Positions 2,552 through 38,174 of a stretch of 64,000 bases of DNA are shown here, one piece after another. The notes below the pieces were generated by a model that was not told the origin of the DNA, did not search any database, and saw only the letters and a program-made list of their open reading frames with translations. The stretch is from the NCBI RefSeq assembly GCF_055900595.2, contig NZ_CM148325.1; one strand, 5' to 3'. The position numbers were made by a program, and so were the translations under genes. Each line of letters begins with the position of its first letter. Positions within the stretch are counted from its first letter, which is position 1.

Positions 2552-2608
2552 CACGCTGGCAGTGAGTTAAATAAGCCTCTGCTACGTAAGGGTTATAGCA
2601 TTTGCCTT

Positions 2609-2632
2609 AAAGATGCATTTAAAATACATCTT
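2609..2632. promoter_or_regulatory. NsrR operator (11-1-11 inverted repeat AAGATGCATTT-A-AAATACATCTT) in the ytfE promoter
   Basis: Near-perfect inverted repeat read directly from sequence, 27 nt upstream of the ytfE ATG; matches the known NsrR binding motif; ytfE is an established NsrR target. Confidence 0.8.
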
Positions 2633-2658
2633 ATATTATTAAGAATGAGGTATCAGCT

Positions 2659-3321
2659 ATGGCTTATCGCGACCAACCTTTAGGTGAACTGGCGCTCTCT
2701 ATTCCTCGCGCTTCGGCTCTGTTTCGTAAATATGATATGGATTACTGCTGCGGCGGTAAGCAAACGCTGGCGCGTGCGGCGGCACGTAAAGAACTGGATG
2801 TTGACGTCATTGAAGCCGAACTGGCAAAGCTTGCTGAACAACCGATTGAGAAAGACTGGCGTAGCGCCCCACTGGCGGAAATCATCGACCATATCATCGT
2901 GCGCTACCACGATCGTCACCGCGAGCAGTTGCCGGAGCTGATCCTGCAAGCTACCAAAGTCGAGCGCGTTCACGCCGACAAACCGAGCGTGCCAAAAGGG
3001 CTGACAAAATACCTGACCATGCTGCATGAAGAGCTTTCCAGCCACATGATGAAAGAAGAGCAGATCCTCTTCCCGATGATCAAACAAGGCATGGGTAGCC
3101 AGGCGATGGGGCCAATTAGCGTAATGGAAAGCGAGCACGATGAAGCGGGCGAACTGCTGGAAGTGATTAAACACACCACCAATAACGTCACACCGCCGCC
3201 GGAAGCCTGCACCACCTGGAAAGCGATGTATAACGGTATTAATGAATTGATTGATGACCTGATGGATCACATCAGCCTGGAAAACAATGTACTGTTCCCA
3301 CGCGCGCTGGCGGGTGAGTGA
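2659..3321 (+). CDS. ytfE: Iron-sulfur cluster repair di-iron protein YtfE (RIC)
   Basis: 220-aa ORF; RBS GAGG upstream; translation recognised as E. coli YtfE. Confidence 0.92.
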
Positions 3322-5924: not shown

Positions 5925-6563
5925 ATGCCCGGGCGCTTTGAACTAAAACCAACCCTGGAGAAAGTCTGGCACGCGCCGGACAATTTTCGCTTCATGGACC
6001 CGCTACCGCCGATGCATCGTCGGGGGATCATTATTGCCGCTATTGTATTGGTGGTCGGATTTCTACTCCCGTCTGATGATACGCCAAACGCGCCGGTGGT
6101 GACGCGTGAAGCACAGTTAGATATTCAGTCGCAATCACAACCGCCGACAGAAGAACAGCTGCGGGCGCAATTAGTCACACCACAAAATGATCCTGATCAG
6201 GTGGCTCCGGTCGCTCCAGAACCGATACAGGAAGGCCAACCGGAAGAGCAGCCGCAAACCTCGCAAGTGCAACCTTTCCAGCCAGATAGCGGAATTGACA
6301 ATCAATGGCGCTCTTATCGTGTCGAACCCGGTAAAACAATGGCGCAGCTGTTCCGCGACCACGGACTGCCCGCTACCGATGTCTATGCAATGGCGCAGGT
6401 AGAAGGCGCAGATAAGCCACTGAGTAATTTGCAAAATGGGCAGATGGTGAAAATCCGCCAGAACGCCAGCGGCGTGGTGACGGGCTTAACCATTGATACG
6501 GGAAATAATCAACAGGTCCTGTTTACCCGCCAGCCGGATGGCAGTTTTATTCGCGCGCGGTAG
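5925..6563 (+). CDS. ytfB: Cell-division-associated OapA-domain protein YtfB
   Basis: ATG at 5925 with AGGAGGA RBS (5913-5919); 212 aa; one TM helix then Pro/Gln-rich linker; in-frame upstream ATG at 5889 also possible. Confidence 0.85.
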
Positions 6564-7194
6564 ATGAAGGGTCAACCAGAAGCCAGCTAAGGATCGTCTC
6601 TTTGATGACCTTACGCCTGGCTTCCAGTGCCTGCGGTGAAACCATACTGATGTGATAAACCAGGCCAAGCGTATGTTGGTTGATCAAATAATATCCTCCA
6701 AGAGCAGCAATATTAATATTCACCTGCAACGGGTCGATATCTGGCTTAAAAATATTGCGCCGTTTGCCTTCAGCTAATAATGACTCCATTAACTGTAAGT
6801 GTGCGTGGTTAATTTCTAAAAGGCGCTGTGATTTTGCATAATGCACCCCTTTACTCTGGTTTTCACTATGCACAATTTTTAAAAACCAGGGGTTAGCAAT
6901 GTAATAATCCCAGGTGAAATCGATAATTTTCTCAATGGCTTTTTGTGGCGGAAGACCTGAGAAATCAAGGGATTTTTCTTTTTGCCGAATATCATTCCAG
7001 GTATATTCCAGCACTTCGATAAATAAATTTTCTTTATTACCAAAGTGATGATAAACCGTCTGTTTACTGCACTCCGCGGCCTTGACGATATTATCGACTC
7101 TGGCCCCTTCGTAACCATATTCGGCAAATTCATTAACCGCACATAACAACAGCTTTTCCTTCAGGCTTTGTACGTTGCTGGTATCAAGATACAT
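6547..7194 (-). CDS. TetR/AcrR-family transcriptional regulator, divergent from the downstream operon (possibly the full-length counterpart of the K-12 ytfA fragment)
   Basis: N-terminal HTH region [48 protein letters not shown] typical of TetR family; start set at ATG 7192-7194 (215 aa); upstream in-frame start at 7254 possible; low GC. Confidence 0.8.
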
Positions 7195-7316
7195 TCCGCT
7201 TCCCCACGTCTTCTTCGTGATGACTATCTTAACCCGATTTGTTAGAAGCTCCACTAAAATGGCTAAAAACTCGCAATTTCATCGGGTTATCAAATGCTCT
7301 GTGATCATTATCGCAT

Positions 7317-7338
7317 ATCAACCAACTAGATGGTTGAT
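7317..7338. promoter_or_regulatory. Candidate TetR operator: perfect 8-6-8 palindrome ATCAACCA-actaga-TGGTTGAT between the divergent regulator and SDR genes
   Basis: Palindrome read directly from sequence, about 70 nt upstream of the SDR start codon and 120 nt upstream of the TetR gene start. Confidence 0.5.
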
Positions 7339-7405
7339 CTTTCTTGCCACACATTGCAAGCTAATCGTCACTTAAGGAAATAATATTCAAAAAGAGGGTT
7401 ATTGT

Positions 7406-8197
7406 ATGAAGTCAACACGTCCTGTTGCTGTCATCACTGGAGCCGCACGTGGTATTGGAAAGGGCTGTGCACTGGAACTTGCGCGTGGCGGATTTAATCT
7501 GCTGATTAATGATCGTCCGGATGCCGACAGCGTAGAAAAATTACATGCCACACAACAAGAATGTCTGGCGGAAGGCGTGGAAGTGATTTGCTTCCCTGCT
7601 GATGTTGGCGATCTCTCCCTTCATGAAGAGATGCTCGACGCGGCGCAAAACCAGTGGGGACGTCTGGACTGTCTACTCAACAACGCAGGCATTTCAGTGA
7701 AAAAACGCGGTGACCTCCTCGACCTCGAACCAGACAGCTTCGACCAAAACATTGCCATTAACACCCGTGCGCCGTTCTTCCTTGCTCAGGCATTCAGTAA
7801 GCGATTACTGGCACAGCCGAAACCGGAAGCAGAACTGCCGCACCGCTCGATTATTTTTGTCAGTTCCATAAACGCCATCATGCTGGCGATGAATCGCGGC
7901 GAATATACCATTGCCAAAACTGCCGTCTCCGCCGCAGCTCGCCTGTTTGCCGCTCGCCTTTGCAATGAACAAATTGGCGTTTATGAAGTGCGCCCTGGCC
8001 TAATCAAAACCGATATGACCATTCCGGCAACGGCTTATTACGACGAACTGATTGCTAAGGGGTTAGTGCCGTGGGGACGTTGGGGTTATCCGGCTGATAT
8101 TGCCTCAACGGTCCGCGCGATGGCGGAAGGCAAACTGATTTACACCTGTGGTCAGGCGGTCGCCATCGACGGCGGCTTAAGTATGCCGCGCTTCTGA
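7406..8197 (+). CDS. Short-chain dehydrogenase/reductase (SDR) family oxidoreductase
   Basis: 263 aa; TGAARGIG cofactor-binding motif, NNAG, and catalytic Ser...YxxxK (YTIAK); RBS GAGGG. Confidence 0.85.
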   Translation: MKSTRPVAVITGAARGIGKGCALELARGGFNLLINDRPDADSVEKLHATQQECLAEGVEVICFPADVGDLSLHEEMLDAAQNQWGRLDCLLNNAGISVKKRGDLLDLEPDSFDQNIAINTRAPFFLAQAFSKRLLAQPKPEAELPHRSIIFVSSINAIMLAMNRGEYTIAKTAVSAAARLFAARLCNEQIGVYEVRPGLIKTDMTIPATAYYDELIAKGLVPWGRWGYPADIASTVRAMAEGKLIYTCGQAVAIDGGLSMPRF

Positions 8198-8206
8198 GGC
8201 TGAATC

Positions 8207-9049
8207 ATGAGAGATCTGTTACAACGCCCGGATTTATTCAGTATCAATACTGCGACACTGGGCTATAAAACACCGCTACCTGCCATTATTGATGCCTGCG
8301 CCGCACGCGGTATTGGCGCGATTGCCCCCTGGCGCAGGGAGTTACAGGGTGAAGATCTCCAACAAATCGCCCGCCAGCTTGCTGCCAGTAACATGAGCGT
8401 TTCCGGTTTGTGCCGTAGCACCTATTACACCGCGCCGACGCTGACGGAACGCAAACTGGCGATTGATGATAACCGCCGGGCGCTGGACGACGCCGCTGTA
8501 CTAAACGCCGCCTGTTATATGCAGGTGGTTGGCGGTCTGCCAATGGGAACAAAAGATCTGTACGAAGCGCGGGAACAAGTGAAACAAGGGATTCGCCAGT
8601 TGCTGCCACATTCGAAAGATGTCGGCGTGCCAATTGCGCTGGAGCCGCTGCACCCGATGACAGCTGCCGATCGCTCTTGCCTGTGCACGTTACGTCAGGC
8701 GCTGGACTGGTGTGATGAACTCGATCCCGATGGGGAGTTTGGCCTCGGCGTGGCGGTAGATGTCTACCACGTTTGGTGGGATCCGGATCTCGCCAGTCAG
8801 ATCCTGCGTGCCGGAAAACGCATCCTCGCGTTTCATGTTTCCGACTGGCTGGTGCCAACCACCGATTTAGTCAATGACCGGGGAATGCCGGGAGATGGCG
8901 TAATCAATATTCCGTCTATTCGTCGCCAGGTAGAAAATGCCGGATTTAACGGTGCTGTGGAACTGGAAATTTTCTCACCGTACTGGTGGCAGCAAGATAT
9001 TAACAGCACGTTGGATATTAGCGTCGATCGCATCGCGCATTATTGCTAA
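8207..9049 (+). CDS. Sugar phosphate isomerase/epimerase-like (xylose isomerase-like TIM barrel) enzyme
   Basis: 280 aa; family assignment from overall sequence character (judged by eye, less certain than neighbours); 9-nt gap after the SDR gene. Confidence 0.6.
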   Translation: MRDLLQRPDLFSINTATLGYKTPLPAIIDACAARGIGAIAPWRRELQGEDLQQIARQLAASNMSVSGLCRSTYYTAPTLTERKLAIDDNRRALDDAAVLNAACYMQVVGGLPMGTKDLYEAREQVKQGIRQLLPHSKDVGVPIALEPLHPMTAADRSCLCTLRQALDWCDELDPDGEFGLGVAVDVYHVWWDPDLASQILRAGKRILAFHVSDWLVPTTDLVNDRGMPGDGVINIPSIRRQVENAGFNGAVELEIFSPYWWQQDINSTLDISVDRIAHYC

Positions 9050-9052
9050 GGA

Positions 9053-9835
9053 ATGATCATGAGTGACCAACCCGTTCTGTTCAGCAGAGCGGCGGCTTCC
9101 TGCCGCCTGACATTGAACCGTGAAGATAAATGTCATGCTATTAATGAAGAAATGATCGAATCTCTCGACCATTATTTAAATGAAATTGAAAACGACACCA
9201 CATTACGATTAGTCGAATTAACGGCAACCGGCGATAAATTCTTTTGTGCGGGCGGCGATATTAAATCGTGGTCGGCCTATTCGCCATTAGATATGGGCAG
9301 AAAATGGATTAAACGCGGCAATGACGTTTTTAATCGCCTGCGCAACTTACCCCAATTAACGGTTGCGAATCTCAACGGTCATACCATCGGCGGCGGTATT
9401 GAACTTGCCTTGTGCTGCGATATTCGTATTGCCCGCCCCAGTGCGAAATTCTCTAATCCGGAAGTAATGCTCGGCATGGTGCCTGGCTGGATGGGCATTG
9501 AACGCGTGCTTAATCAGGTCGGTCCGGTGGTCGGTCGCCAGATGCTGATGCTGGGTAAACGCCTGACGGCGCAGGAAGCTCAGGCGGCGAATTTAATTGA
9601 TGAAGTGGTAGAAAAAGAACAGGTGGAAAGCTGGATGGCGAATCAGTTAGCGCAGCTGGAAAAATGCGGTCCGGTGGCGCTCGCACATATCAAGCAACTG
9701 ATTCTGGCTCTAGAAAATAAACATGCTGATTACCCGCACCAGTTACTGGCTGGATTAATGTCCGCCACTCAGGATTGCCAGCAGGCGACGCGCGCATTTG
9801 CCGAAAAAAGTAGCGTGAGCTTCCAAAATCAATAA
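9053..9835 (+). CDS. Enoyl-CoA hydratase/isomerase (crotonase) family protein
   Basis: 260 aa; FCAGGDIKSW and GHTIGGGIELALCCDIRIA crotonase signature segments; 3-nt gap after the upstream gene. Confidence 0.85.
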   Translation: MIMSDQPVLFSRAAASCRLTLNREDKCHAINEEMIESLDHYLNEIENDTTLRLVELTATGDKFFCAGGDIKSWSAYSPLDMGRKWIKRGNDVFNRLRNLPQLTVANLNGHTIGGGIELALCCDIRIARPSAKFSNPEVMLGMVPGWMGIERVLNQVGPVVGRQMLMLGKRLTAQEAQAANLIDEVVEKEQVESWMANQLAQLEKCGPVALAHIKQLILALENKHADYPHQLLAGLMSATQDCQQATRAFAEKSSVSFQNQ

Positions 9836-9844
9836 GGAAATTGT

Positions 9845-11386
9845 ATGCGTAAGATAACAACCGCCGAGACACTGGCGGCGCAAATTCAGGACGGCGCAAC
9901 CATTGCCATTAGCGGTAATGGCGGCGGCATGGTGGAAGCGGACCATATTCTGGCTGCTATTGAAGCGCGTTTCCTGCAAACCGGACACCCGCGCGATCTG
10001 ACATTAATCCACTCACTGGGCATTGGCGATCGCGACTGCAAAGGCACTAACCGCTTCGCTCATGCAGAGATGCTCAAACGCATCATTGCCGGACATTTTA
10101 CCTGGTCGCCCAAGATGCAGGATCTGGTGAAAAACAATGCTATTGAAGCCTACTGCTTCCCTGGTGGCGTAATTCAGGCACTGCTGCGGGAGATCGGTGC
10201 CGGACGTCCAGGGCTTTTTACCCACGTTGGGCTGGGATCGTTTGTTGATCCGCGCAACGGCGGCGGTAAGTCGAACGCTAGCAGCACTGAGGATCTGGTA
10301 GAACTGATTGAAATCGACGGTGAAACCAAACTTCGTTATCGCCCCTTCAAAGTGGACTACGCGATTTTGCGTGGCACTTATGCCGATCCGCGTGGCAACG
10401 TCAGCCTCGAAGAAGAGGCGATTGATATGGATAGCTATTCCATGGCGCTGGCAGCACACAACAGCGGCGGCAAAGTGTTCGTACAGGTGCGCGATGTGCT
10501 GGAAGCTGGTGCCATTGAACCACGCCGGGTCAAATTACCGGGCATTCTGGTTGATGGCATCGTTGAACACCGCGAACAACCGCAAACCTATCTTGGCGGT
10601 TACGACCTGACCATCAGCGGTCAGCATCGCCGTCTAAGTTCTAACGACGCAATTGAACTGGTTAGTCATCCGGTGCGCCGCCTGATTGCCCGTCGGGCAG
10701 CACGCGAACTGGTGGCTGGCGCTTCAACCAACTTTGGCTTTGGCATTCCCGGCGGCATTCCTGGGGTTGCACTGCGCGAAGGCGTGCCTTATCAAAGTTT
10801 ATGGCTGAGCGTAGAACAGGGTGTACATAACGGCATGATGCTGGATGATGCTCTGTTCGGCTGCGCCCGCAACGCCGATGCCATTATTCCATCACTCGAT
10901 CAATTCGAATTCTACAGTGGCGGAGGGATCGATATCACCTTCCTCGGCATGGGAGAGATGGATCAGTACGGTAACGTCAACGTCTCCCATCTCAATGGCA
11001 ATCTCATTGGCCCCGGCGGATTTCTCGAAATTGCGCAAAACGCCCGTAAAGTGGTGTTCTGCGGCACGTTCGACGCCAAAGGTAGCACGATTGATGTAAC
11101 ACCAGATGGCTTGCATATCGCCCAGTCAGGTCAAATCCCTAAACTGGTTACCCAGGTGGAAAAAATCACTTTTAGCGCCGCCTACGCACAGCAAAGCGGT
11201 CAGGAAGTGTTGTATATCACTGAACGTGCAGTATTCCAGTTAACAGCAGAAGGCGTTGAATTAATTGAAATCGCACCAGGTGTGGAGATTGAGCGCGACA
11301 TTCTGCCGCATATGGCCTTCCGTCCAATTATCAATCAGCCACGCCTGATGGAAAGTAGCCTGTTTACGCCGATGGAGGATGCATGA
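9845..11386 (+). CDS. Family-I CoA-transferase (fused alpha/beta, YdiF / propionate-CoA-transferase-like)
   Basis: 513 aa; N-terminus TAETLAAQIQDGATIAISGNGGGM and size match acyl-CoA:acetate/3-ketoacid CoA-transferases; RBS AAGGA. Confidence 0.75.
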   Translation: MRKITTAETLAAQIQDGATIAISGNGGGMVEADHILAAIEARFLQTGHPRDLTLIHSLGIGDRDCKGTNRFAHAEMLKRIIAGHFTWSPKMQDLVKNNAIEAYCFPGGVIQALLREIGAGRPGLFTHVGLGSFVDPRNGGGKSNASSTEDLVELIEIDGETKLRYRPFKVDYAILRGTYADPRGNVSLEEEAIDMDSYSMALAAHNSGGKVFVQVRDVLEAGAIEPRRVKLPGILVDGIVEHREQPQTYLGGYDLTISGQHRRLSSNDAIELVSHPVRRLIARRAARELVAGASTNFGFGIPGGIPGVALREGVPYQSLWLSVEQGVHNGMMLDDALFGCARNADAIIPSLDQFEFYSGGGIDITFLGMGEMDQYGNVNVSHLNGNLIGPGGFLEIAQNARKVVFCGTFDAKGSTIDVTPDGLHIAQSGQIPKLVTQVEKITFSAAYAQQSGQEVLYITERAVFQLTAEGVELIEIAPGVEIERDILPHMAFRPIINQPRLMESSLFTPMEDA

Positions 11387-13455
11387 GTCAGCTTGATGAC
11401 ACCCTCCTTGATGCGCTGACGCACGTCACTTTCCCGAAGGGTTTTGCACAGGCAGAACCCGCATGGGTTGTCACGGTAGACGGTGTTGATTACCCACTCT
11501 GGCAAACAGATGCCCTGGTAGTCGGCAGTGGTGCAGCCGGGCTGCGTGCAGCTGTGGAACTTAAGCGCCGCCAGCAAAATGTGCTGATCGCCACCGCCGG
11601 GTTATATATGGGGACATCGGCATGTTCTGGTTCCGATAAACAGACGCTGTTTACCGCCGCTACCGCGGGCAACGGCGATAACTTCGCCAAACTGGCAGAG
11701 GCACTGGCGAGCGGCGGCGCAATGGATCACGATACCGCTTATGTTGAAGCGGTTGGTTCCCTGCACACTCTTGGCGGGTTGCAATATCTTGGTCTGGAAT
11801 TACCGGAAGATCGCTATGGCGCAATTCTTCGTTATCAAACCGACCATGACGAAGCCGGGCGAGCAACCTCGTGTGGGCCGCGGACCTCAAGGTTAATGGT
11901 GAAAGTACTGCTGGAAGAAGTACAGCGTCTCGCCATTCCAGTGTTGACCAGTGCAACAGTAATTAAACTGCTGCATCAGCGTGACGAAAACGGTGAAGAC
12001 CGCGTGGCGGGGGCAATCCTCGCGACCGGTCATCGTGCCCATAACCCATGGGGGCTGGCAATTGTGACTGCGCCCAATGTGGTACTGGCAACAGGAGGGC
12101 CTGGCGAGCTTTATCGTGACAGTGTGTACCCACACAAATGTTTCGGCTCGCTGGGGCTGGCGCTGGAAGAAGGTCTGACGTTAACGAATCTGACCGAAAG
12201 CCAGTTTGGTATAGGCACGCCGCGCAGCACCTTTCCGTGGAATTTATCCGGGACTTATGTACAGGTGATCCCATACATCTATTCGGTGGATGCCGGGGGC
12301 AACGAGTATAACTTCCTCGCAGATTACTATCGCACCACCCAGGAGCTGGCTTCAAACATCTTCCGTAAAGGCTATCAGTGGCCGTTTCACGCCACACGAG
12401 TGATGGATTTTGGCTCCAGCTTGTTAGATATGGCAGTAGCGCAAGAGCAGCAATCAGGACGTCAGGTATTTATGGATTTCAATCGCAATCCTGAACCTGT
12501 GCCGGGTGACCTGCCGTTCTCATTAGATCGACTGGACGACGACGTTCGCGCGTATCTGGAAAATAACGACGCTCTGGCACCATCGCCCATCGAACGACTG
12601 CAACGAATGAATCCGCTGTCTATCTCGCTGTATAAGATGCACGGTTACGATCTCACCACGCAGCCATTGCAGTTTGCCATGAATAATCAGCATATGAATG
12701 GCGGCATTGAAGTGGATATCTGGGGGCAAACCTCCCTGTCCGGCTGTTTCGCCGTGGGGGAAGTTGCTGGCACACACGGCGTCACTCGCCCTGGTGGTGC
12801 GGCATTGAATGCCGGGCAGGTTTTTGCTGTTCGTCTGGCACGTTTTATTGGTTGCACGCAAAAACGTAATATTGATGGAGATATAGCACAGCTGGTAGCT
12901 CCGGCACTGGCTTCTATAAGAGAGATCATTACTCAGGCGCACGATAACGGGACCGGGATGCCGTTGTCGGTTGTGAGGGAAAAAATTCAGGCACGAATGT
13001 CTGACCATGCGGGATTTATTTGTCATGCCGATAAAGTCCGACGCGCCACTCGTGATGCCCTGCTATTGAACGAATTTGTGCAACGGCATGGATTGGCAAT
13101 CAAACATGTGGGTGAAGTTGCCGAGCTGTTTATGTGGCGGCATATGGCGCTGACTTCTGCCGCGGTATTAACACAATTAACGCATTATATTGATGCTGGT
13201 GGTGGTAGCCGTGGGGCGCGTATGGTTATTGATCCACAAGGCAAATGCCTACCACAAACTCGTCGCGGCGCAAAAGAAGAATGGCGTTTTCGCTCTGAAC
13301 TCGCTGAAGACAAAAATCACAAATTAACAATTCAATATTCGCAAGGTTCTTTTATTACCGAAGTAAAGTCTTTACGTATGCAACCGTGTATTAACGGTAT
13401 TTACTTTGAAAAAAACTGGCCAGACTTTTTAAAGGGAGACATTTACACACAGTAA
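11383..13455 (+). CDS. FAD-dependent oxidoreductase of the fumarate reductase/succinate dehydrogenase flavoprotein superfamily (soluble, stand-alone)
   Basis: 690 aa; ALVVGSGAAGLRAAVEL dinucleotide-binding motif after a ~45-aa N-terminal extension; C-terminal GEVAGTHGVTRPGGAALNAGQVFA resembles the FrdA/SdhA HGANRLGxNSL segment; start overlaps the CoA-transferase stop (ATGA). Confidence 0.8.
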   Translation: MSQLDDTLLDALTHVTFPKGFAQAEPAWVVTVDGVDYPLWQTDALVVGSGAAGLRAAVELKRRQQNVLIATAGLYMGTSACSGSDKQTLFTAATAGNGDNFAKLAEALASGGAMDHDTAYVEAVGSLHTLGGLQYLGLELPEDRYGAILRYQTDHDEAGRATSCGPRTSRLMVKVLLEEVQRLAIPVLTSATVIKLLHQRDENGEDRVAGAILATGHRAHNPWGLAIVTAPNVVLATGGPGELYRDSVYPHKCFGSLGLALEEGLTLTNLTESQFGIGTPRSTFPWNLSGTYVQVIPYIYSVDAGGNEYNFLADYYRTTQELASNIFRKGYQWPFHATRVMDFGSSLLDMAVAQEQQSGRQVFMDFNRNPEPVPGDLPFSLDRLDDDVRAYLENNDALAPSPIERLQRMNPLSISLYKMHGYDLTTQPLQFAMNNQHMNGGIEVDIWGQTSLSGCFAVGEVAGTHGVTRPGGAALNAGQVFAVRLARFIGCTQKRNIDGDIAQLVAPALASIREIITQAHDNGTGMPLSVVREKIQARMSDHAGFICHADKVRRATRDALLLNEFVQRHGLAIKHVGEVAELFMWRHMALTSAAVLTQLTHYIDAGGGSRGARMVIDPQGKCLPQTRRGAKEEWRFRSELAEDKNHKLTIQYSQGSFITEVKSLRMQPCINGIYFEKNWPDFLKGDIYTQ

Positions 13456-13547
13456 TTTTCAATATTTACTCTGTACCTGATTTTTATTGCCTATTACATG
13501 GAAATACCAACAACCAGGGTTTATTAATATAATTAAAAGGTTTAAAA

Positions 13548-14825
13548 ATGAATAAAATAAAGAATTATCGATGGCATATGATTGCCCTCGTATGCTTTAT
13601 CACTGTAATCAATTATCTGGACAGAACGGCGTTAGGTATTGCGGCTCCAACGATTATGGAGACAACCGGAATAACCAAAGAACAATATTCATGGATTGTC
13701 AGTGCATTCCAGTTGGCCTATACATTGGGGCAACCGGTAATGGGCTTCTTTATTGATACCGTGGGTCTGAAGTTAAGTTTTGCGATATGTGCCGCAATCT
13801 GGGGCCTGGCGACAATGGGGCATGCCTTGACAGGAACATGGTCAGGTCTGGCATTTATGCGCGCCCTGATGGGTTTCAGCGAAGCATCGGCAATTCCTGC
13901 GGGTGTAAAAACCGCATCAACATGGTTCCCGGCAAAAGAGCGTGGCGTGGCGACAGGTGTTTTCAATATGGGCACCTCACTCGGCGCGATGCTTGCTCCA
14001 CCGTTGATTGCCTGGTGCATTATGTTTCATAGCTGGCAATTTGCGTTTATTGTCTCAGGTAGCCTTGCTTTACTCGCGGCTTTATTTTGGTTCTTTTGTT
14101 ATAAAGATCCAAAAGATGCTAAACGCCTTTCTGATGAAGAGCGCCACTATATTGAGTCTGGGCAAGAACAGCATCTTAAAACAGATAAGAAAGAAAAAAC
14201 GTCAATCAAGCATATCCTCAGCCAACGTAATTTCTGGGGGATTGGCATCGCGCGTTTTCTCGCTGACCCGGCATGGGGAACCATTAACTTCTGGGTACCG
14301 ATTTTCTTCGTCGAAACGCTGCATTTTAGCCTGAAAGAAATTGCCATGTTCGTCTGGCTGCCTTTCCTGCTGGGCGATCTCGGCTGTTTAGCCAGTGGTT
14401 TTGTCGCGAAGTTCTTCCACGATCGCGGCGTGAGTTTAATTAACTCACGAAGAATTACCTTCACTATTGCAGCCGTCATTATGATGACGATTGGTCTGGT
14501 GAGTATTGTCGAAAATCCCTACATCGCCGTATTACTGATTAGCATTGGCGCATTCTCGCATCAATGTCTTTCTACTGTTGCAGCAACTCTGGGCGGTGAC
14601 CTATTCAAAAAAGACGAAGTAGCTACCGCTGTGGGTATGGCAGGAGCCTGTGCATGGAGCGGTCAGTTGATTTTCAACCTGTTTATCGGGGCATTCGTTC
14701 ACATTATTGGCTTCGCGCCGTTCTTTATTGCCCTGGCTTTCTTTGACATTATTGGTGCTATTGCGTTGTGGACGCTTATCAAAGTTAAAGATGAAGAACC
14801 ACAAGTACAGTTAGCTACCCACTAA
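13548..14825 (+). CDS. MFS transporter, anion:cation symporter (ACS) subfamily-like (ExuT/DgoT/GudP-type)
   Basis: 425 aa, about 12 TM segments; N-terminal RWHMIALVCFITVINYLDRTALGIAAP is characteristic of ACS-family organic-anion permeases. Confidence 0.8.
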   Translation: MNKIKNYRWHMIALVCFITVINYLDRTALGIAAPTIMETTGITKEQYSWIVSAFQLAYTLGQPVMGFFIDTVGLKLSFAICAAIWGLATMGHALTGTWSGLAFMRALMGFSEASAIPAGVKTASTWFPAKERGVATGVFNMGTSLGAMLAPPLIAWCIMFHSWQFAFIVSGSLALLAALFWFFCYKDPKDAKRLSDEERHYIESGQEQHLKTDKKEKTSIKHILSQRNFWGIGIARFLADPAWGTINFWVPIFFVETLHFSLKEIAMFVWLPFLLGDLGCLASGFVAKFFHDRGVSLINSRRITFTIAAVIMMTIGLVSIVENPYIAVLLISIGAFSHQCLSTVAATLGGDLFKKDEVATAVGMAGACAWSGQLIFNLFIGAFVHIIGFAPFFIALAFFDIIGAIALWTLIKVKDEEPQVQLATH

Positions 14826-14836
14826 TTATTTTAAAT

Positions 14837-14868
14837 AAAAACGCTATAATTGAGGTTATGGCGTTTTT
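14837..14868 (+). terminator. Intrinsic terminator after the MFS transporter gene
   Basis: Hairpin aaaacgctataa/ttatggcgtttt (one mismatch) with short loop, followed by a T-run, 12 nt past the stop codon. Confidence 0.55.
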
Positions 14869-15094
14869 AAAGAAGCTTGAGTTATCGAACCTAGCTTACC
14901 AACGCGTTGTCAGTCATCTCCCCCCTCCCTGGTGCATCGTTATATCCGTGATGAGCGATTTTTGATATTAATATCTTTCACCATCCGCTATTTTCACCAC
15001 TTCAGAAAACAAACTTATTTTTATTAATATCAATTCTTTTTCTTTGAACATTCAACTGCGATATTTGTAAAAATATTAAACAGGCAACAATAAA

Positions 15095-15889
15095 ATGACA
15101 TTACCAACAACTATTTATTCATTCCCCGCATATTTACCTCGTTTTTCGTCCACCGACAAACCAGCAAAACTAAAATTTCATCAATACGCACGCGCTACAT
15201 TACTGTCAAATCGTGGAAGAGATCATAATTGCGATGGCAGACGTACTGTTGAGATCCACAAACTAGATCTCTCAGACTGGCAAGCATTCAATAAGCTAGC
15301 GACGAGGTGTAATACTTACGATGGAATAACAATGAATGGTGATAATTCTTTTGGATGGAACCATGAAGCTACATTAGATAATATTCACGCCCAGAAATAC
15401 AATAAAGCTTACGCGGGTGCGCGGTTAACCGCAGAACTGAAATATTTATTGCAAGATGTCGAATCCTTCGAACCCAACAGTAAATACACAATACACGAAG
15501 TGGTTTTGGGACCTGGTTATGGTACTCCAGACTATACCGGCCAAACGATAGGATACGTTGTAACCCTTCCTGCCCAAATGCCTAATTGCTGGTCATCTGA
15601 ACTACCAACAATCGATCTTTATATCGACCAACTTCGCACTGTTACAGGCGTTTCTAATGCCCTCGGATTCATCATTGCTGCATTGCTAAACGCGTATTCT
15701 GATTTACCCCATGATTTGAAAATTGGTCTACGTTCCTTATCAAATTCAGCCGCAATCTACTCGGGTTTAGGTTTCGAGCGAGTGCCGCAGGACCGAGACA
15801 TAAGGAGTGATCGTATGCATCTAACGCCAGCAAACCATCCTGACTTATGGACACAAGAGAATGGTGAATGGATCTACTTGCGAAATTAA
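15095..15889 (+). CDS. yjfZ: Uncharacterised protein YjfZ
   Basis: 264-aa ORF, AT-rich, preceded by an AT-rich 270-bp intergenic region; size and position next to rplI match K-12 yjfZ. Confidence 0.75.
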   Translation: MTLPTTIYSFPAYLPRFSSTDKPAKLKFHQYARATLLSNRGRDHNCDGRRTVEIHKLDLSDWQAFNKLATRCNTYDGITMNGDNSFGWNHEATLDNIHAQKYNKAYAGARLTAELKYLLQDVESFEPNSKYTIHEVVLGPGYGTPDYTGQTIGYVVTLPAQMPNCWSSELPTIDLYIDQLRTVTGVSNALGFIIAALLNAYSDLPHDLKIGLRSLSNSAAIYSGLGFERVPQDRDIRSDRMHLTPANHPDLWTQENGEWIYLRN

Positions 15890-15911
15890 TGCCTGACGAA
15901 AAATAGAAAGC

Positions 15912-15938
15912 AAAACGCCGACCAATGGTCGGCGTTTT
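15912..15938. terminator. Bidirectional intrinsic terminator between convergent yjfZ and rplI (aaaacgccgacc-aatg-gtcggcgtttt)
   Basis: Perfect 12-bp stem whose A/T runs give a U-tract in both orientations. Confidence 0.75.
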
Positions 15939-15959
15939 TACGTCTCGTTGAATAACGAA

Positions 15960-16421
<462 letters not shown>

Positions 16422-18075: not shown

Positions 18076-18627
18076 TCAACGAATAACGACTTCCGGATCC
18101 GGCTCATGAGTAATGCGATTACGTAAGTCGCGGCGCATAATTTCTATTATCCAGAACCAGAAAATGTGCCCAAGGATTTCAGATGCATATTCGTCAAAAG
18201 GCAATTGAGTGAGCGGCGGCGTTAAATTCAGCGCCGGGCAAAATATACCGTGGACTGCCACTGTCACAATAAGCCCTGCTAATATCCCCTGCCATAATTT
18301 CACTTTCGGGAAAATTTCCGCGACCACACAATACCCTATCGCAAAAACCAGTGAGAAGATGATATGCGTCACCATCACCGGGTTGATAATATGTTCCGAG
18401 AATGTATACACAGTTTGGGTTGGGTCGATCCCTAAATAATCCCGTAGAAAGATATACGGCGGATTAAACTCATCGCGACCACCGGAAAATGTGCGCGGTG
18501 GCAAGGGAACTTCCGCTCCCCATTTAACAAATGCTGAAATAATTCCTGAAAGTACACCCACAAGTAACGCAACGCCATAACGGCGACGCTGCGGATCCGT
18601 TCTGACAAACAATCCGTTGATAGCCAT
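18076..18627 (-). CDS. Putative inner membrane protein, YagU/DUF1440-like
   Basis: 183-aa ORF with several hydrophobic helices; segments [37 protein letters not shown] resemble the YagU family as I recall it; I do not recall a gene at this position in K-12. Confidence 0.6.
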
Positions 18628-31181: not shown

Positions 31182-31841
31182 TTAACCAATAATATGAAGT
31201 GATGTCAGTGGGATATCAACACCCAGTGCGCGCGAAAATAACCACTCCGGCTCGCCGAGATCGTTAAAAGATTCCTCACCATTTAACAGCAAATATTCAC
31301 AGGTATCTTCGGTCACCTGCCGTTCATAGCCCATGGTAAAATTATGCACTTCCCATTTGGCGTGGTTTTGATTTTCAACTTTTTCCAGCATATAGACGGG
31401 TTCGATATTCCCCGGTTCTTCGCTGTTAAAAAATCGCTGCCAGCGTTTTTCCTGCCAGTTTAAAGTCATTGCCCCCATCGCTTTGGCATTGATCGCCTCG
31501 CGCCAGTGGCTCTCTTTACTGATACCGTAGCTCTCTTCATAGACAAAGAGCTTGATATCATCAATGTCATCAATATCTTCGCCGCCGGTGGTATTGATTT
31601 GCAGAAATTCATCGCCCGAAGTGTAGTAGCGGAAAATCTGACTACCGCCGCCCAGATCGATGTGGCTGACAGCGGCTACCGTAAATTCTTCACCCGGCAG
31701 CGCAATCAGCAATTCATCTTCCAGCAAACGAAACGCTAACGTGTCGAGCGTAAAGCCGCTATTGAGATGAAGTCCCAGTGGGCCACGTGCGATTGCAGGT
31801 TTATCATCCTTACCAAACAGACGCTTGAAAAAACTTGTCAT
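31182..31841 (-). CDS. yjfK: DUF2491 protein YjfK
   Basis: 219-aa ORF; start codon overlaps the stop of the upstream channel-like gene (ATGA). Confidence 0.85.
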   Translation of the reverse strand: MTSFFKRLFGKDDKPAIARGPLGLHLNSGFTLDTLAFRLLEDELLIALPGEEFTVAAVSHIDLGGGSQIFRYYTSGDEFLQINTTGGEDIDDIDDIKLFVYEESYGISKESHWREAINAKAMGAMTLNWQEKRWQRFFNSEEPGNIEPVYMLEKVENQNHAKWEVHNFTMGYERQVTEDTCEYLLLNGEESFNDLGEPEWLFSRALGVDIPLTSLHIIG

Positions 31842-32908
31842 ATGCTTCCCTCAATGTCCTGCCATGCCACTTCTTCAGCCAAAATACGGTTATTGCCAAT
31901 AAGATGCAGCCACATACCGCCTTTAACTTCCGTTGCAATGACTGGATTCAGTTCCATTCCCCTACCATTTTTACAACTGCTTATTCCCAGGACGGTGGCA
32001 TCATGATGAAGTTTCATATAATGCATCAATGCGCCATAACGCATTGAGGTAACCCGTTCAGGAATCGGTAAAACAAACCCCGTATCCCCCAGCATTGGAT
32101 TCATAATCGATGCCACTGATTGAGATGAACCGGGATCTTGTATTGAACGGGAAAGTTGTTCTGCTGAAATATTTCGCACTATTTCAATACGTTGACAATG
32201 AACCTCTAATAAACGAGCGTAGCGTTCATCTTCCAGATAAGCGACGATATGGCATCTTTCAGGAATAAAATCCGCCAGGGATAGTGCGGTCGTGAACGTC
32301 TGCTCATCAGTTTGCGAAAAGATGATGACACTTTGGCAATTTGCCAGTCCCATGCGGGTATGTTCATGCGGATCATTAAAATTACTAATACGAATGAAAT
32401 CGACCCAATTATTTCCAGGCATCGGATGTTGAATATCATCCCGCTCACACAAAAGTACCCGGCCAAATGCTCTTCGGGAATCAAACAACAATAATGAAAT
32501 CATCTTTTCAGTCTGATGCCCGCGCCATCCAATGACCAGCATATGGTTGCGCAAATTGCTGTAGTCGCCCATTCCCGTCATTCCTTTCGCCAATATGTCT
32601 TGCACTAATGCAATGACTTTTCCCATTAAAGCGCCAAATAAACCAACACTCACAGGAATCTGCCAGAGCGCTGTGAACAGACGTCCCCCCACCGTTTGGG
32701 GTGTGATATCACCAAACCCCAGCGTTGATCCCACAACCGAGCAGTAATAAATAAAATTACTCAGTTGACCTACCAACGCCTCTTCATGCAACGCAGTTAA
32801 CACCAGATAACAAAACAGATACTGTCCTGTAAATAATCCAGTCAATGCCGGCCAGGTAAGCCTGGAAAGGTGACGTCGGCAGGTTTTAATGATCCATGAG
32901 AAGAACAT
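31838..32908 (-). CDS. Two-TM K+-channel-like membrane protein with a C-terminal cytoplasmic domain (possibly RCK/TrkA-like), inserted between yjfJ and yjfK
   Basis: 356-aa ORF; hydrophobic helix - pore-loop TLGFGDITP - hydrophobic helix; C-terminal soluble domain with VIGWRG segment; about 43% GC in sampled stretches and rare codons CGA/AGA/AGG/GGA/TTA seen; coupled by TAATG to yjfJ and ATGA to yjfK. Confidence 0.8.
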   Translation of the reverse strand: MFFSWIIKTCRRHLSRLTWPALTGLFTGQYLFCYLVLTALHEEALVGQLSNFIYYCSVVGSTLGFGDITPQTVGGRLFTALWQIPVSVGLFGALMGKVIALVQDILAKGMTGMGDYSNLRNHMLVIGWRGHQTEKMISLLLFDSRRAFGRVLLCERDDIQHPMPGNNWVDFIRISNFNDPHEHTRMGLANCQSVIIFSQTDEQTFTTALSLADFIPERCHIVAYLEDERYARLLEVHCQRIEIVRNISAEQLSRSIQDPGSSQSVASIMNPMLGDTGFVLPIPERVTSMRYGALMHYMKLHHDATVLGISSCKNGRGMELNPVIATEVKGGMWLHLIGNNRILAEEVAWQDIEGSI

Positions 32909-33606
32909 TACTCGCCCTGTTGGCGTTGCAGTCTTGCTAATACATCCTGGGCGCTACTTTTGTTGCTACCGCCAATTCCGGCTTCCGCCAGTTTTTCATC
33001 AAGATCGCGACCATCTGCCACTTTTTCCAGCTGTGCGGCAGCATCCAGGCGAGCTTGACGTTCGGCCTGACGCGTTTGCAGACGCTTTAAGGATTCTGCC
33101 GCTGTCGAAACGCTGGAAGATGCGCCAACAGTAGAGGTCGTTACGGCCTGTTGTGCACGCTGCATGGCTTCAGTAGCTTTAACGACTTCCATTTGTTGCT
33201 CAAATTGAGCGATACGCTGTGCTGTCGCTGTAACCGCTTTTTCCACACCATCGCGAGAGACTTCCAGATTCGACAACACTTGCTCTTCAGCGGTAATGAC
33301 ATTCTCAAGACGGGCGATTTCTTCAGCAACTTCGTTAATCAACGACGGATTAACATTCTTGCTTAACGCTTCCAGCGCGCGAGCTTCCAGACTGGCTTTA
33401 CGCTCACGCAAATCTTTCAGTTTATCGTTGCTCAATTTCACTCTTGCCAGTAGATCGACACGTGATTTACCGGCCTTATCCAGTTCTGCTTTGGCATCGC
33501 GTATATGCTGTTCAAGCATTCTAACGCCCTGTGCTTCTTCAATGGATTCTTCCGCTTGCGAGATCACCGATTTACCCAGCGTAAATAAAGTTTTTAAAAT
33601 TCCCAT
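32908..33606 (-). CDS. yjfJ: PspA/IM30-family protein YjfJ
   Basis: 232-aa coiled-coil-rich ORF. Confidence 0.9.
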   Translation of the reverse strand: MGILKTLFTLGKSVISQAEESIEEAQGVRMLEQHIRDAKAELDKAGKSRVDLLARVKLSNDKLKDLRERKASLEARALEALSKNVNPSLINEVAEEIARLENVITAEEQVLSNLEVSRDGVEKAVTATAQRIAQFEQQMEVVKATEAMQRAQQAVTTSTVGASSSVSTAAESLKRLQTRQAERQARLDAAAQLEKVADGRDLDEKLAEAGIGGSNKSSAQDVLARLQRQQGE

Positions 33607-37544: not shown

Positions 37545-37970
37545 TCACTCCACCAGCAATAATTTATAAAGCGGTTGATTCTCTTCAACCAAATCGGCAA
37601 GCGTGTAGTTATCCAGTTCCATAAGAAAACTTTGCACGGCCTTAGAAAGCGCCTGTTTCAACCGACAGGCAGGTGTAATGTGGCAAAACTCACTGCTGCA
37701 ATTCACCAGCGATAAGGGCTCCAGCTCGCGCACCACATCACCAATACGTATCGCACTCGCCGGTTTACCCAGGCGAATGCCGCCATTTTTTCCACGAACA
37801 GCAGTCACGTAGCCGGCACGACTAAGTTGATTGATTATTTTGACCATATGATTACGGGAGACGCCGTAGACGTCAGTCACTTCAGAAATACTGGTCATCC
37901 GCCCTTCTGGCAATGACGCCATGTAGATCAGCGCACGTAATCCGTAATCAGTGAAACTCGTTAACTGCAC
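37545..37970 (-). CDS. nsrR: Nitric-oxide-sensing Rrf2-family repressor NsrR
   Basis: 141-aa ORF with N-terminal HTH; three Cys for the Fe-S cluster. Confidence 0.93.
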
Positions 37971-38174
37971 ATCAACCTCAAAAGGGAAAGCGGGAAAAAA
38001 TACATTTATATTGATGATAAACCAGCCACAAGCTGTGTCGCTAATTTATTTCAGTTCGGGGAAGGAAAAAAGCGAGGATTTAACACTGTGTCGGATAGCG
38101 TAATGGCTTACCCGACACAGCAATGTATCACACTGTTAGCCCGGCAGGCAAAATATCTGCCAGGCGTACCAGAA

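Follow-up and report, generated by a model that had tools for sequence, protein, structure and literature searches.

In Escherichia coli CFT073, no 11-1-11 NsrR site of the genome ranks above the operator in front of ytfE (ln P -25.13), which carries an NsrR ChIP-seq peak with 9.65-fold enrichment and a summit at -50 from the ytfE start; its half-sites are tabulated at start-codon distances of 33 and 45, and nitrate, through nitrate-derived NO, induces the gene 69.6-fold (PMC5320621). At least as summarized in that same paper, ytfE was also among the promoters bound in an earlier ChIP-chip study of K-12 (PMC5320621). In a Salmonella nsrR mutant the ytfE mRNA is up 544-fold (PMC2884951), and an NsrR site of ytfE was predicted by comparative genomics by Rodionov et al. 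(PMC1274295). The published evidence of binding that we found comes from ChIP; a footprint of ytfE with E. coli NsrR in vitro is not among it. For Streptomyces coelicolor NsrR, the crystal structure of the complex with a 23-bp operator shows protein and DNA each about 80 Å in length, with HTH and wing contacts on the outer operator, and about 2 NO per cluster suffice to abolish binding to the operator (PMC9338935). It is from these studies that we take the occupancy of the site in vivo, the induction by NO or nitrate, the loss of repression when nsrR is mutated and the way in which a homologous NsrR sits on a 23-bp operator. Enterobacteria rely on the NsrR-ytfE circuit, among other means, to survive the nitric oxide produced by a host, and the analysis presented here leaves that picture unchanged. 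An NsrR operator of ytfE is already known biology and is not a discovery; what we add is small and descriptive, namely a near-invariant position of the site over 80 species, a polymorphism at one base of the operator and a derived base of K-12 in the adjacent TATATT hexamer.

The DNA analyzed here, referred to as the window, is a single stretch of 64,000 nucleotides that, judged by its sequence, belongs to E. coli. Of 5,426 complete E. coli genomes, 5,416 match its ytfF-ytfE junction, which in strain 2013C-4282 is the same at every base (100% identity), and identity over the whole region is 97-99.7% to strain 2013C-4282 and about 95-98% to K-12. Around the operator the window reads ...GCCTTAAAGATGCATTTAAAATACATCTTATATTATTAAGAATGAGGTATCAGCTATG..., and the 23-nt string AAGATGCATTTAAAATACATCTT has one exact match in the 64 kb, at 2610-2632 (Table 1), which remains the only match even with three mismatches, while dinucleotide-preserving shuffles give an expectation of 0.00 matches at up to three mismatches. 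The two arms, as delimited by the repeat finder, lie 1 nt apart and are complementary at 10 of 11 positions (91%). Symmetry fails only at A2626, a position that would have to be G in a perfect palindrome; on the minus strand this base is the T at position 7 of the right half-site, which is the K-12 allele. The preliminary description, made from the letters of the DNA, had read here an 11-1-11 inverted repeat, which is borne out by arms at 2610-2620 and 2622-2632 around a spacer of 1 nt, although the repeat is not perfect. It had also placed the site at 2609-2632; the end at 2632 stands, and the start has to be moved to 2610, as one extra A had been taken in. The 24-nt span 2609-2632 is as wide as the NsrR matrix of RegulonDB, which has the consensus taaGatGCatttsarataCayCtt. 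The distance of 27 nt upstream of ytfE given in that description holds if the last base of the operator, at -27, is taken as the reference; 26 nt separate the end of the operator from the ATG at 2659.

Table 1. Coordinates of the operator, of the neighboring control elements and of the two genes of the circuit in the window.
Feature	Position	Strand	Basis and remarks
Second conserved block, TAAGGGTTATAGC	2587..2599		Conservation profile and alignment; 10 nt upstream of the operator
NsrR operator, 11-1-11 inverted repeat AAGATGCATTT-A-AAATACATCTT	2610..2632		Exact match, repeat, PWM, conservation
Left half-site of the operator, AAGATGCATTT	2610..2620	+	Top half-site PWM match in the window, 15.7 bits
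Right half-site of the operator, AAGATGTATTT on the minus strand	2622..2632	-	Second half-site match in the window, 15.05 bits
Candidate -10, TAAAAT (inferred)	2620..2625	+	At the operator centre; 5/6 to TATAAT
Alternative candidate -10, TATATT (inferred)	2632..2637	+	Overlaps the right arm by one base
Shine-Dalgarno sequence of ytfE, GAGG	2647..2650	+	Direct reading; 8 nt before the ATG
ytfE, di-iron Fe-S cluster repair protein, RIC family	2659..3321	+	220-aa ORF, NCBIfam, Pfam
nsrR, Rrf2-family NO-sensing trans-acting repressor, GTG start	37545..37970	-	141-aa ORF, NCBIfam, Pfam Rrf2

The strength of the match was measured with a position weight matrix (PWM) built from the 27 11-1-11 NsrR sites of E. 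coli CFT073 in Table 4 of PMC5320621, from which the ytfE site itself and one duplicate were dropped, leaving 25 sites that were symmetrised and converted to log-odds. On this ytfE-free matrix the operator at 2610-2632 scores 30.66 bits; the runner-up anywhere in the window reaches 12.29 bits and the maximum over 100 first-order Markov simulations of the window is 19.68 bits, which is the outcome of the weight-matrix scan that the preliminary description had proposed as a check. The sites on which the matrix was trained span 12.2-26.9 bits (the best at 26.88), all below the operator, and the departure from full symmetry, with 10 of 11 positions complementary, costs it just 0.8 bits. Its two halves are likewise the two top 11-nt matches of the window. 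Against the RegulonDB NsrR consensus, taken as quoted in PMC3035439, the operator agrees at 22 of the 23 positions that are specified, a result equalled by 0 of 500 shuffled versions of the intergenic DNA. The label "canonical" that had been given to this operator is thus justified, since it lies nearer to the NsrR consensus than all the other published sites.

We then consider conservation, for which orthologous loci were sampled with the YtfE protein as query and one genome per species, giving 80 loci at 90-100% amino acid identity from Escherichia, Enterobacter, Citrobacter, Klebsiella, Raoultella, Kosakonia, Kluyvera, Lelliottia, Buttiauxella, Cedecea, Trabulsiella, Yokenella, Phytobacter and others. 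With the ytfE-free matrix, scanned over 2-3 kb at each locus, an NsrR site is present upstream of ytfE in 80 of 80 loci at 24.3-31.5 bits, with no second-best match above 10.8 bits at any of them. These sites end 24-27 nt before the start codon and in 62 of the 80 exactly 26 nt before it. In the alignment of the 150 nt upstream of ytfE, the mean majority fraction is 0.945 over the operator columns and 0.446 over the intergenic DNA upstream of it (2552-2609), and for the first 30 nt of the ytfE coding sequence it is 0.864; the GAGGTA of the ribosome-binding region is kept in every aligned species. The probability that the palindrome is a functionless chance feature is negligible, even though the region is indeed AT-rich and short half-site-like strings elsewhere in the window reach 12-13 bits: the expectation is 0.00, no simulated 64-kb sequence attains 20 bits as against the 30.66 of the operator, and the site recurs at the same position in 80 of 80 species amid intergenic DNA that is otherwise poorly conserved. 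Conservation and statistics together already refute that explanation. As a separate observation, a record titled Escherichia albertii NBRC 107761 has a YtfE that is 100% (rounded) identical to that of the window, with DNA only 93.3% identical, and the same 23-nt operator.

The manner in which the operator varies between species bears on what kind of element it is. The changes remain within the NsrR consensus (AAGWTG, GYAT, central A/T) and are not compensatory between the arms, as with the A/G difference at 2626, which is unmatched in the other arm; substitutions that keep the consensus without compensating one another are the signature of a protein-binding site and not of an RNA helix. An inverted repeat between two genes on the same strand could of course work as RNA, either as the terminator of ytfF or as a hairpin in the leader of ytfE. 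We give this next to no credence, since, besides this pattern of changes, the best fold is of -4 kcal/mol (z = -0.42), 52 of 200 shuffles fold equally well or better, a full hairpin cannot form with operator arms only 1 nt apart, and the scan of 2400-2800 contained no terminator-like site above threshold.

If the element is bound by a protein, that protein need not in principle be NsrR. NsrR-regulated promoters are reported to respond when iron is limiting, and ytfE has a link to Fe-S metabolism, both of which could point to Fur, FNR or the Rrf2 paralogue IscR as the main regulator bound at the operator. The relationship between IscR and NsrR is also apparent in the window, as its NsrR matches IscR structures at 1e-9 to 5e-10. 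Nevertheless, the best FNR, Fur and IscR type-1 matches in the intergenic DNA are equalled by 498, 475 and 411 of 500 shuffles, respectively, and no FNR, Fur or IscR type-1 match is centred on the operator. These figures stand against the 22 of 23 positions of the NsrR consensus that no shuffle equals and against the NsrR ChIP-seq peak in CFT073 (PMC5320621), and we consider it very improbable that a regulator other than NsrR is the main one here.

Both partners of the proposed circuit are encoded in the window, and both genes are intact. The product of the gene downstream of the operator passes the NCBIfam equivalog model for YtfE (NF008221) with 417 bits against a cut-off of 254, aligned over residues 1-219 of 220, and has the Pfam domains ScdA_N (PF04405) and Hemerythrin (PF01814); the gene is also annotated as ytfE by RefSeq in a collinear strain. 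The target named in the preliminary description is therefore ytfE indeed. The repressor gene that it had located some 35 kb away likewise proves to be nsrR, the product of which passes the NsrR equivalog (NF008240) with 292 bits against a cut-off of 182 and is identical to K-12 NsrR at 140 of 141 residues, the single change being T117M. In the alignment with S. coelicolor NsrR (5N07/7B0C), Asp8 and three Cys of the window protein are in register with the cluster ligands. Hence, the equivalog and alignment results place regulator and target together in the window, 34.9-35.3 kb from nsrR to the operator. Since NsrR acts in trans, this spacing has no functional implication.

We consider it almost certain that NsrR controls ytfE by way of the inverted repeat at 2610-2632 as its operator, and the mechanism best supported is the established one. 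A homodimer of NsrR carrying its Fe-S cluster, provided in trans by the gene about 35 kb away, would bind the two 11-bp half-sites with one winged-helix domain each. The operator would lie on the ytfE core promoter, where it either overlaps the -10 region or adjoins it, and because of this position bound NsrR would keep RNA polymerase from initiating. NO would nitrosylate the cluster of NsrR, upon which DNA binding would be lost and ytfE derepressed, and YtfE, once made, would repair the Fe-S clusters damaged by NO.

Where exactly the core promoter lies depends on which hexamer serves as the -10. In a promoter scan of 2400-2800 against the consensus, no pair of sigma-70 hexamers passed the threshold, and a text search of the literature found no published transcription start for ytfE. 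The first candidate in Table 1, at 2620-2625, reads TAAAAT in 58, TAATAT in 21 and TATAAT in 2 of the 81 sequences formed by the window and the 80 species; the second, at 2632-2637, reads TATATT in 67, TATAAT in 6 and TATAAA in 4 of the same 81, and may be the real -10 of ytfE. A recognizable -35 is absent for both. The operator would thus cover about -22 to +1 if TAAAAT is used, or about -35 to -12 if it is TATATT, and would lie on the core promoter in either case. In the abstract of their 2006 paper, Bodenmiller and Spiro reportedly describe an overlap of the inverted repeat with the -10 element in the promoters of ytfE, hmp and ygbA.

Given that no canonical -35/-10 pair is detectable and that a conserved, TATA-containing block lies 10-20 nt upstream of the operator, one can envisage that NsrR, instead of occluding the promoter, acts as a roadblock to a polymerase that has started further upstream. 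On this reading the -10 would lie in the TTATAG/GTATAT block at about 2593-2598 and the start near 2605, which we regard as decidedly improbable: the block (TATAGC or TATATC) does not have the near-invariant final T of a -10 element, the region where its -35 would fall is poorly conserved, better -10 matches (TAAAAT and TATATT) occur inside or next to the operator, and the primary paper is said to have the repeat overlapping the -10. Repression by occupation of the core promoter is hence the arrangement that we prefer.

Within E. coli the operator and its surroundings are not uniform. Operator position 17 (2626) is polymorphic, with A in the window and K-12 and G in CFT073 and SA186; of 5,426 complete E. 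coli genomes, 874 or more contain the exact 74-mer queried, which has the G allele. Position 2635 also varies, being A in the window, giving the TATATT that is the majority form across genera, and C in K-12 and most E. coli, giving TATCTT. TATCTT of K-12 is the derived form and TATATT the ancestral one. The exact 61-mer of the window is common to only 32 complete E. coli genomes. K-12-type sequences contain an ATCTT tandem repeat, and in E. coli strain 774 a 5-bp slippage deletion, aligned to 2628-2637, has removed one copy of ATCTT-ATCTT, so that the operator of this strain, itself intact, has moved 5 nt towards the start of ytfE.

The conserved block at 2587-2599 is possibly part of the same control region as the operator. 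The sites of NarL/NarP have the 7-2-7 consensus TACYYMT-NN-AKRRGTA. In many genera the block reads ...CCTCnAAAGGGGTA and resembles such a site; a NarL/NarP-like match is found at a fixed position in 54 of 81 sequences with 11-13 of 14 positions agreeing, where shuffles reach at least 12 in 2.8% of cases. For the block of the window itself a NarL/NarP site was dropped, as its 10 of 14 is chance level. The IscR type-2 consensus agrees with the block at 17 of 24 positions, which is equalled by 36 of 500 shuffles. We think it rather unlikely that the variation described above (A or G at 2626, and TATATT or TATCTT, giving lineage-specific ytfE levels) and an activator site at 2587-2599 are functional. 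If they were, A/G at 2626 and the adjacent hexamer could together set the basal and induced levels of ytfE by lineage, and 2587-2599 could be the site, so far unrecognized, of an activator such as NarL/NarP, giving most Enterobacteriaceae an activator-plus-NsrR design like that of yeaR-yoaG, with the activator site degenerated in E. coli.

A string resembling an NsrR half-site (TAAATGTATTT / AAAATACATTT) is also present at 37997-38008, 27-38 nt upstream of nsrR and over a TATAAAT. At 13.4 bits it is the third-best half-site of the window, and the background that follows is at 12.9 and 12.7 bits. It could hint at autoregulation of nsrR or be due to chance, and with a score only marginally above the background we did not adopt it as an autoregulatory half-site.

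The distance between ytfE and nsrR is lineage-specific, being 25.4 kb in K-12 and about 35 kb in the window, and the larger value is accounted for by three differences in gene content from K-12. The first is a stretch of about 9.5 kb of genes between ytfB and rplI that replaces yjfZ-ytfA of K-12. This accessory stretch lies at about 6547-16309, its K-12 counterpart being yjfZ and the ytfA pseudogene, and it encodes a TetR regulator, a 3-ketoacyl-ACP reductase, a sugar-phosphate isomerase, an enoyl-CoA hydratase, a CoA-transferase, an FAD oxidoreductase and a TRAP transporter; within it, about 13452-15903 is also unlike strain 2013C-4282. The second is a gene of the potassium-channel family between yjfK and yjfJ, at about 31840-32910 of the window (corresponding to 31706-32776 of the collinear E. 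coli locus L001), where none is annotated in K-12. The third is a gene of the YagU family (183 aa, 18076-18627, minus strand) between yjfY and ulaF, which is found in 603 of 5,426 complete E. coli genomes and is missing in K-12 and in strain 2013C-4282.

Set beside the characterized systems, the locus is closest to the ytfE operators of E. coli itself. The K-12 operator, for which Bodenmiller and Spiro (2006), Partridge et al. (2009) and the RegulonDB NsrR matrix are the references, has the identical 23 nt at the same distance from the start codon and between the same neighbors, ytfF and ytfE, and the flanks differ by two substitutions only, at 2600 (A in the window, T in K-12) and 2635 (A in the window, C in K-12). 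The CFT073 operator, at the same locus and position, is one base off, being the perfect palindrome AAGATGCATTTAAAATGCATCTT with G in place of A2626. The left half-site AAGATGCATTT is identical to the ytfE half-site in the CFT073 ChIP-seq table (PMC5320621), and the half-site centres of the window, 32 and 44 nt from the ATG, fit the CFT073 offsets of 33 and 45. The comparison with the published ytfE promoter that the preliminary description had called for therefore returns the K-12 site itself and, with a single base different, a site bound in ChIP. A published footprint that placed NsrR elsewhere was to have counted against the reading; the published binding data do not put the site elsewhere, and the CFT073 summit at -50 and the offsets of 33 and 45 fit 2610-2632. 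The site had been put forward as known biology and a clean positive control for reading raw sequence, and weight matrix, conservation and literature all agree with that reading.

The more distant counterparts share the architecture to different degrees. The structure of S. coelicolor [4Fe-4S]-NsrR on the hmpA1 operator (7B0C) likewise has an Rrf2 dimer on 23 bp (PMC9338935), and the alignment of the protein with NsrR of the window spans residues 1-129 and keeps Asp8 and three Cys. The sequence of the hmpA1 operator is, however, unlike that of the window, and S. coelicolor NsrR binds the E. coli hmpA site very weakly (PMC9338935). Nearer at hand are the NsrR sites of E. coli hmp, hcp, ygbA and yeaR-yoaG, genes that all lie outside this window. 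They have in common with the ytfE operator the 11-1-11 architecture and the consensus but are more degenerate, the training sites scoring 12.2-26.9 bits as compared to 30.7 bits for ytfE.
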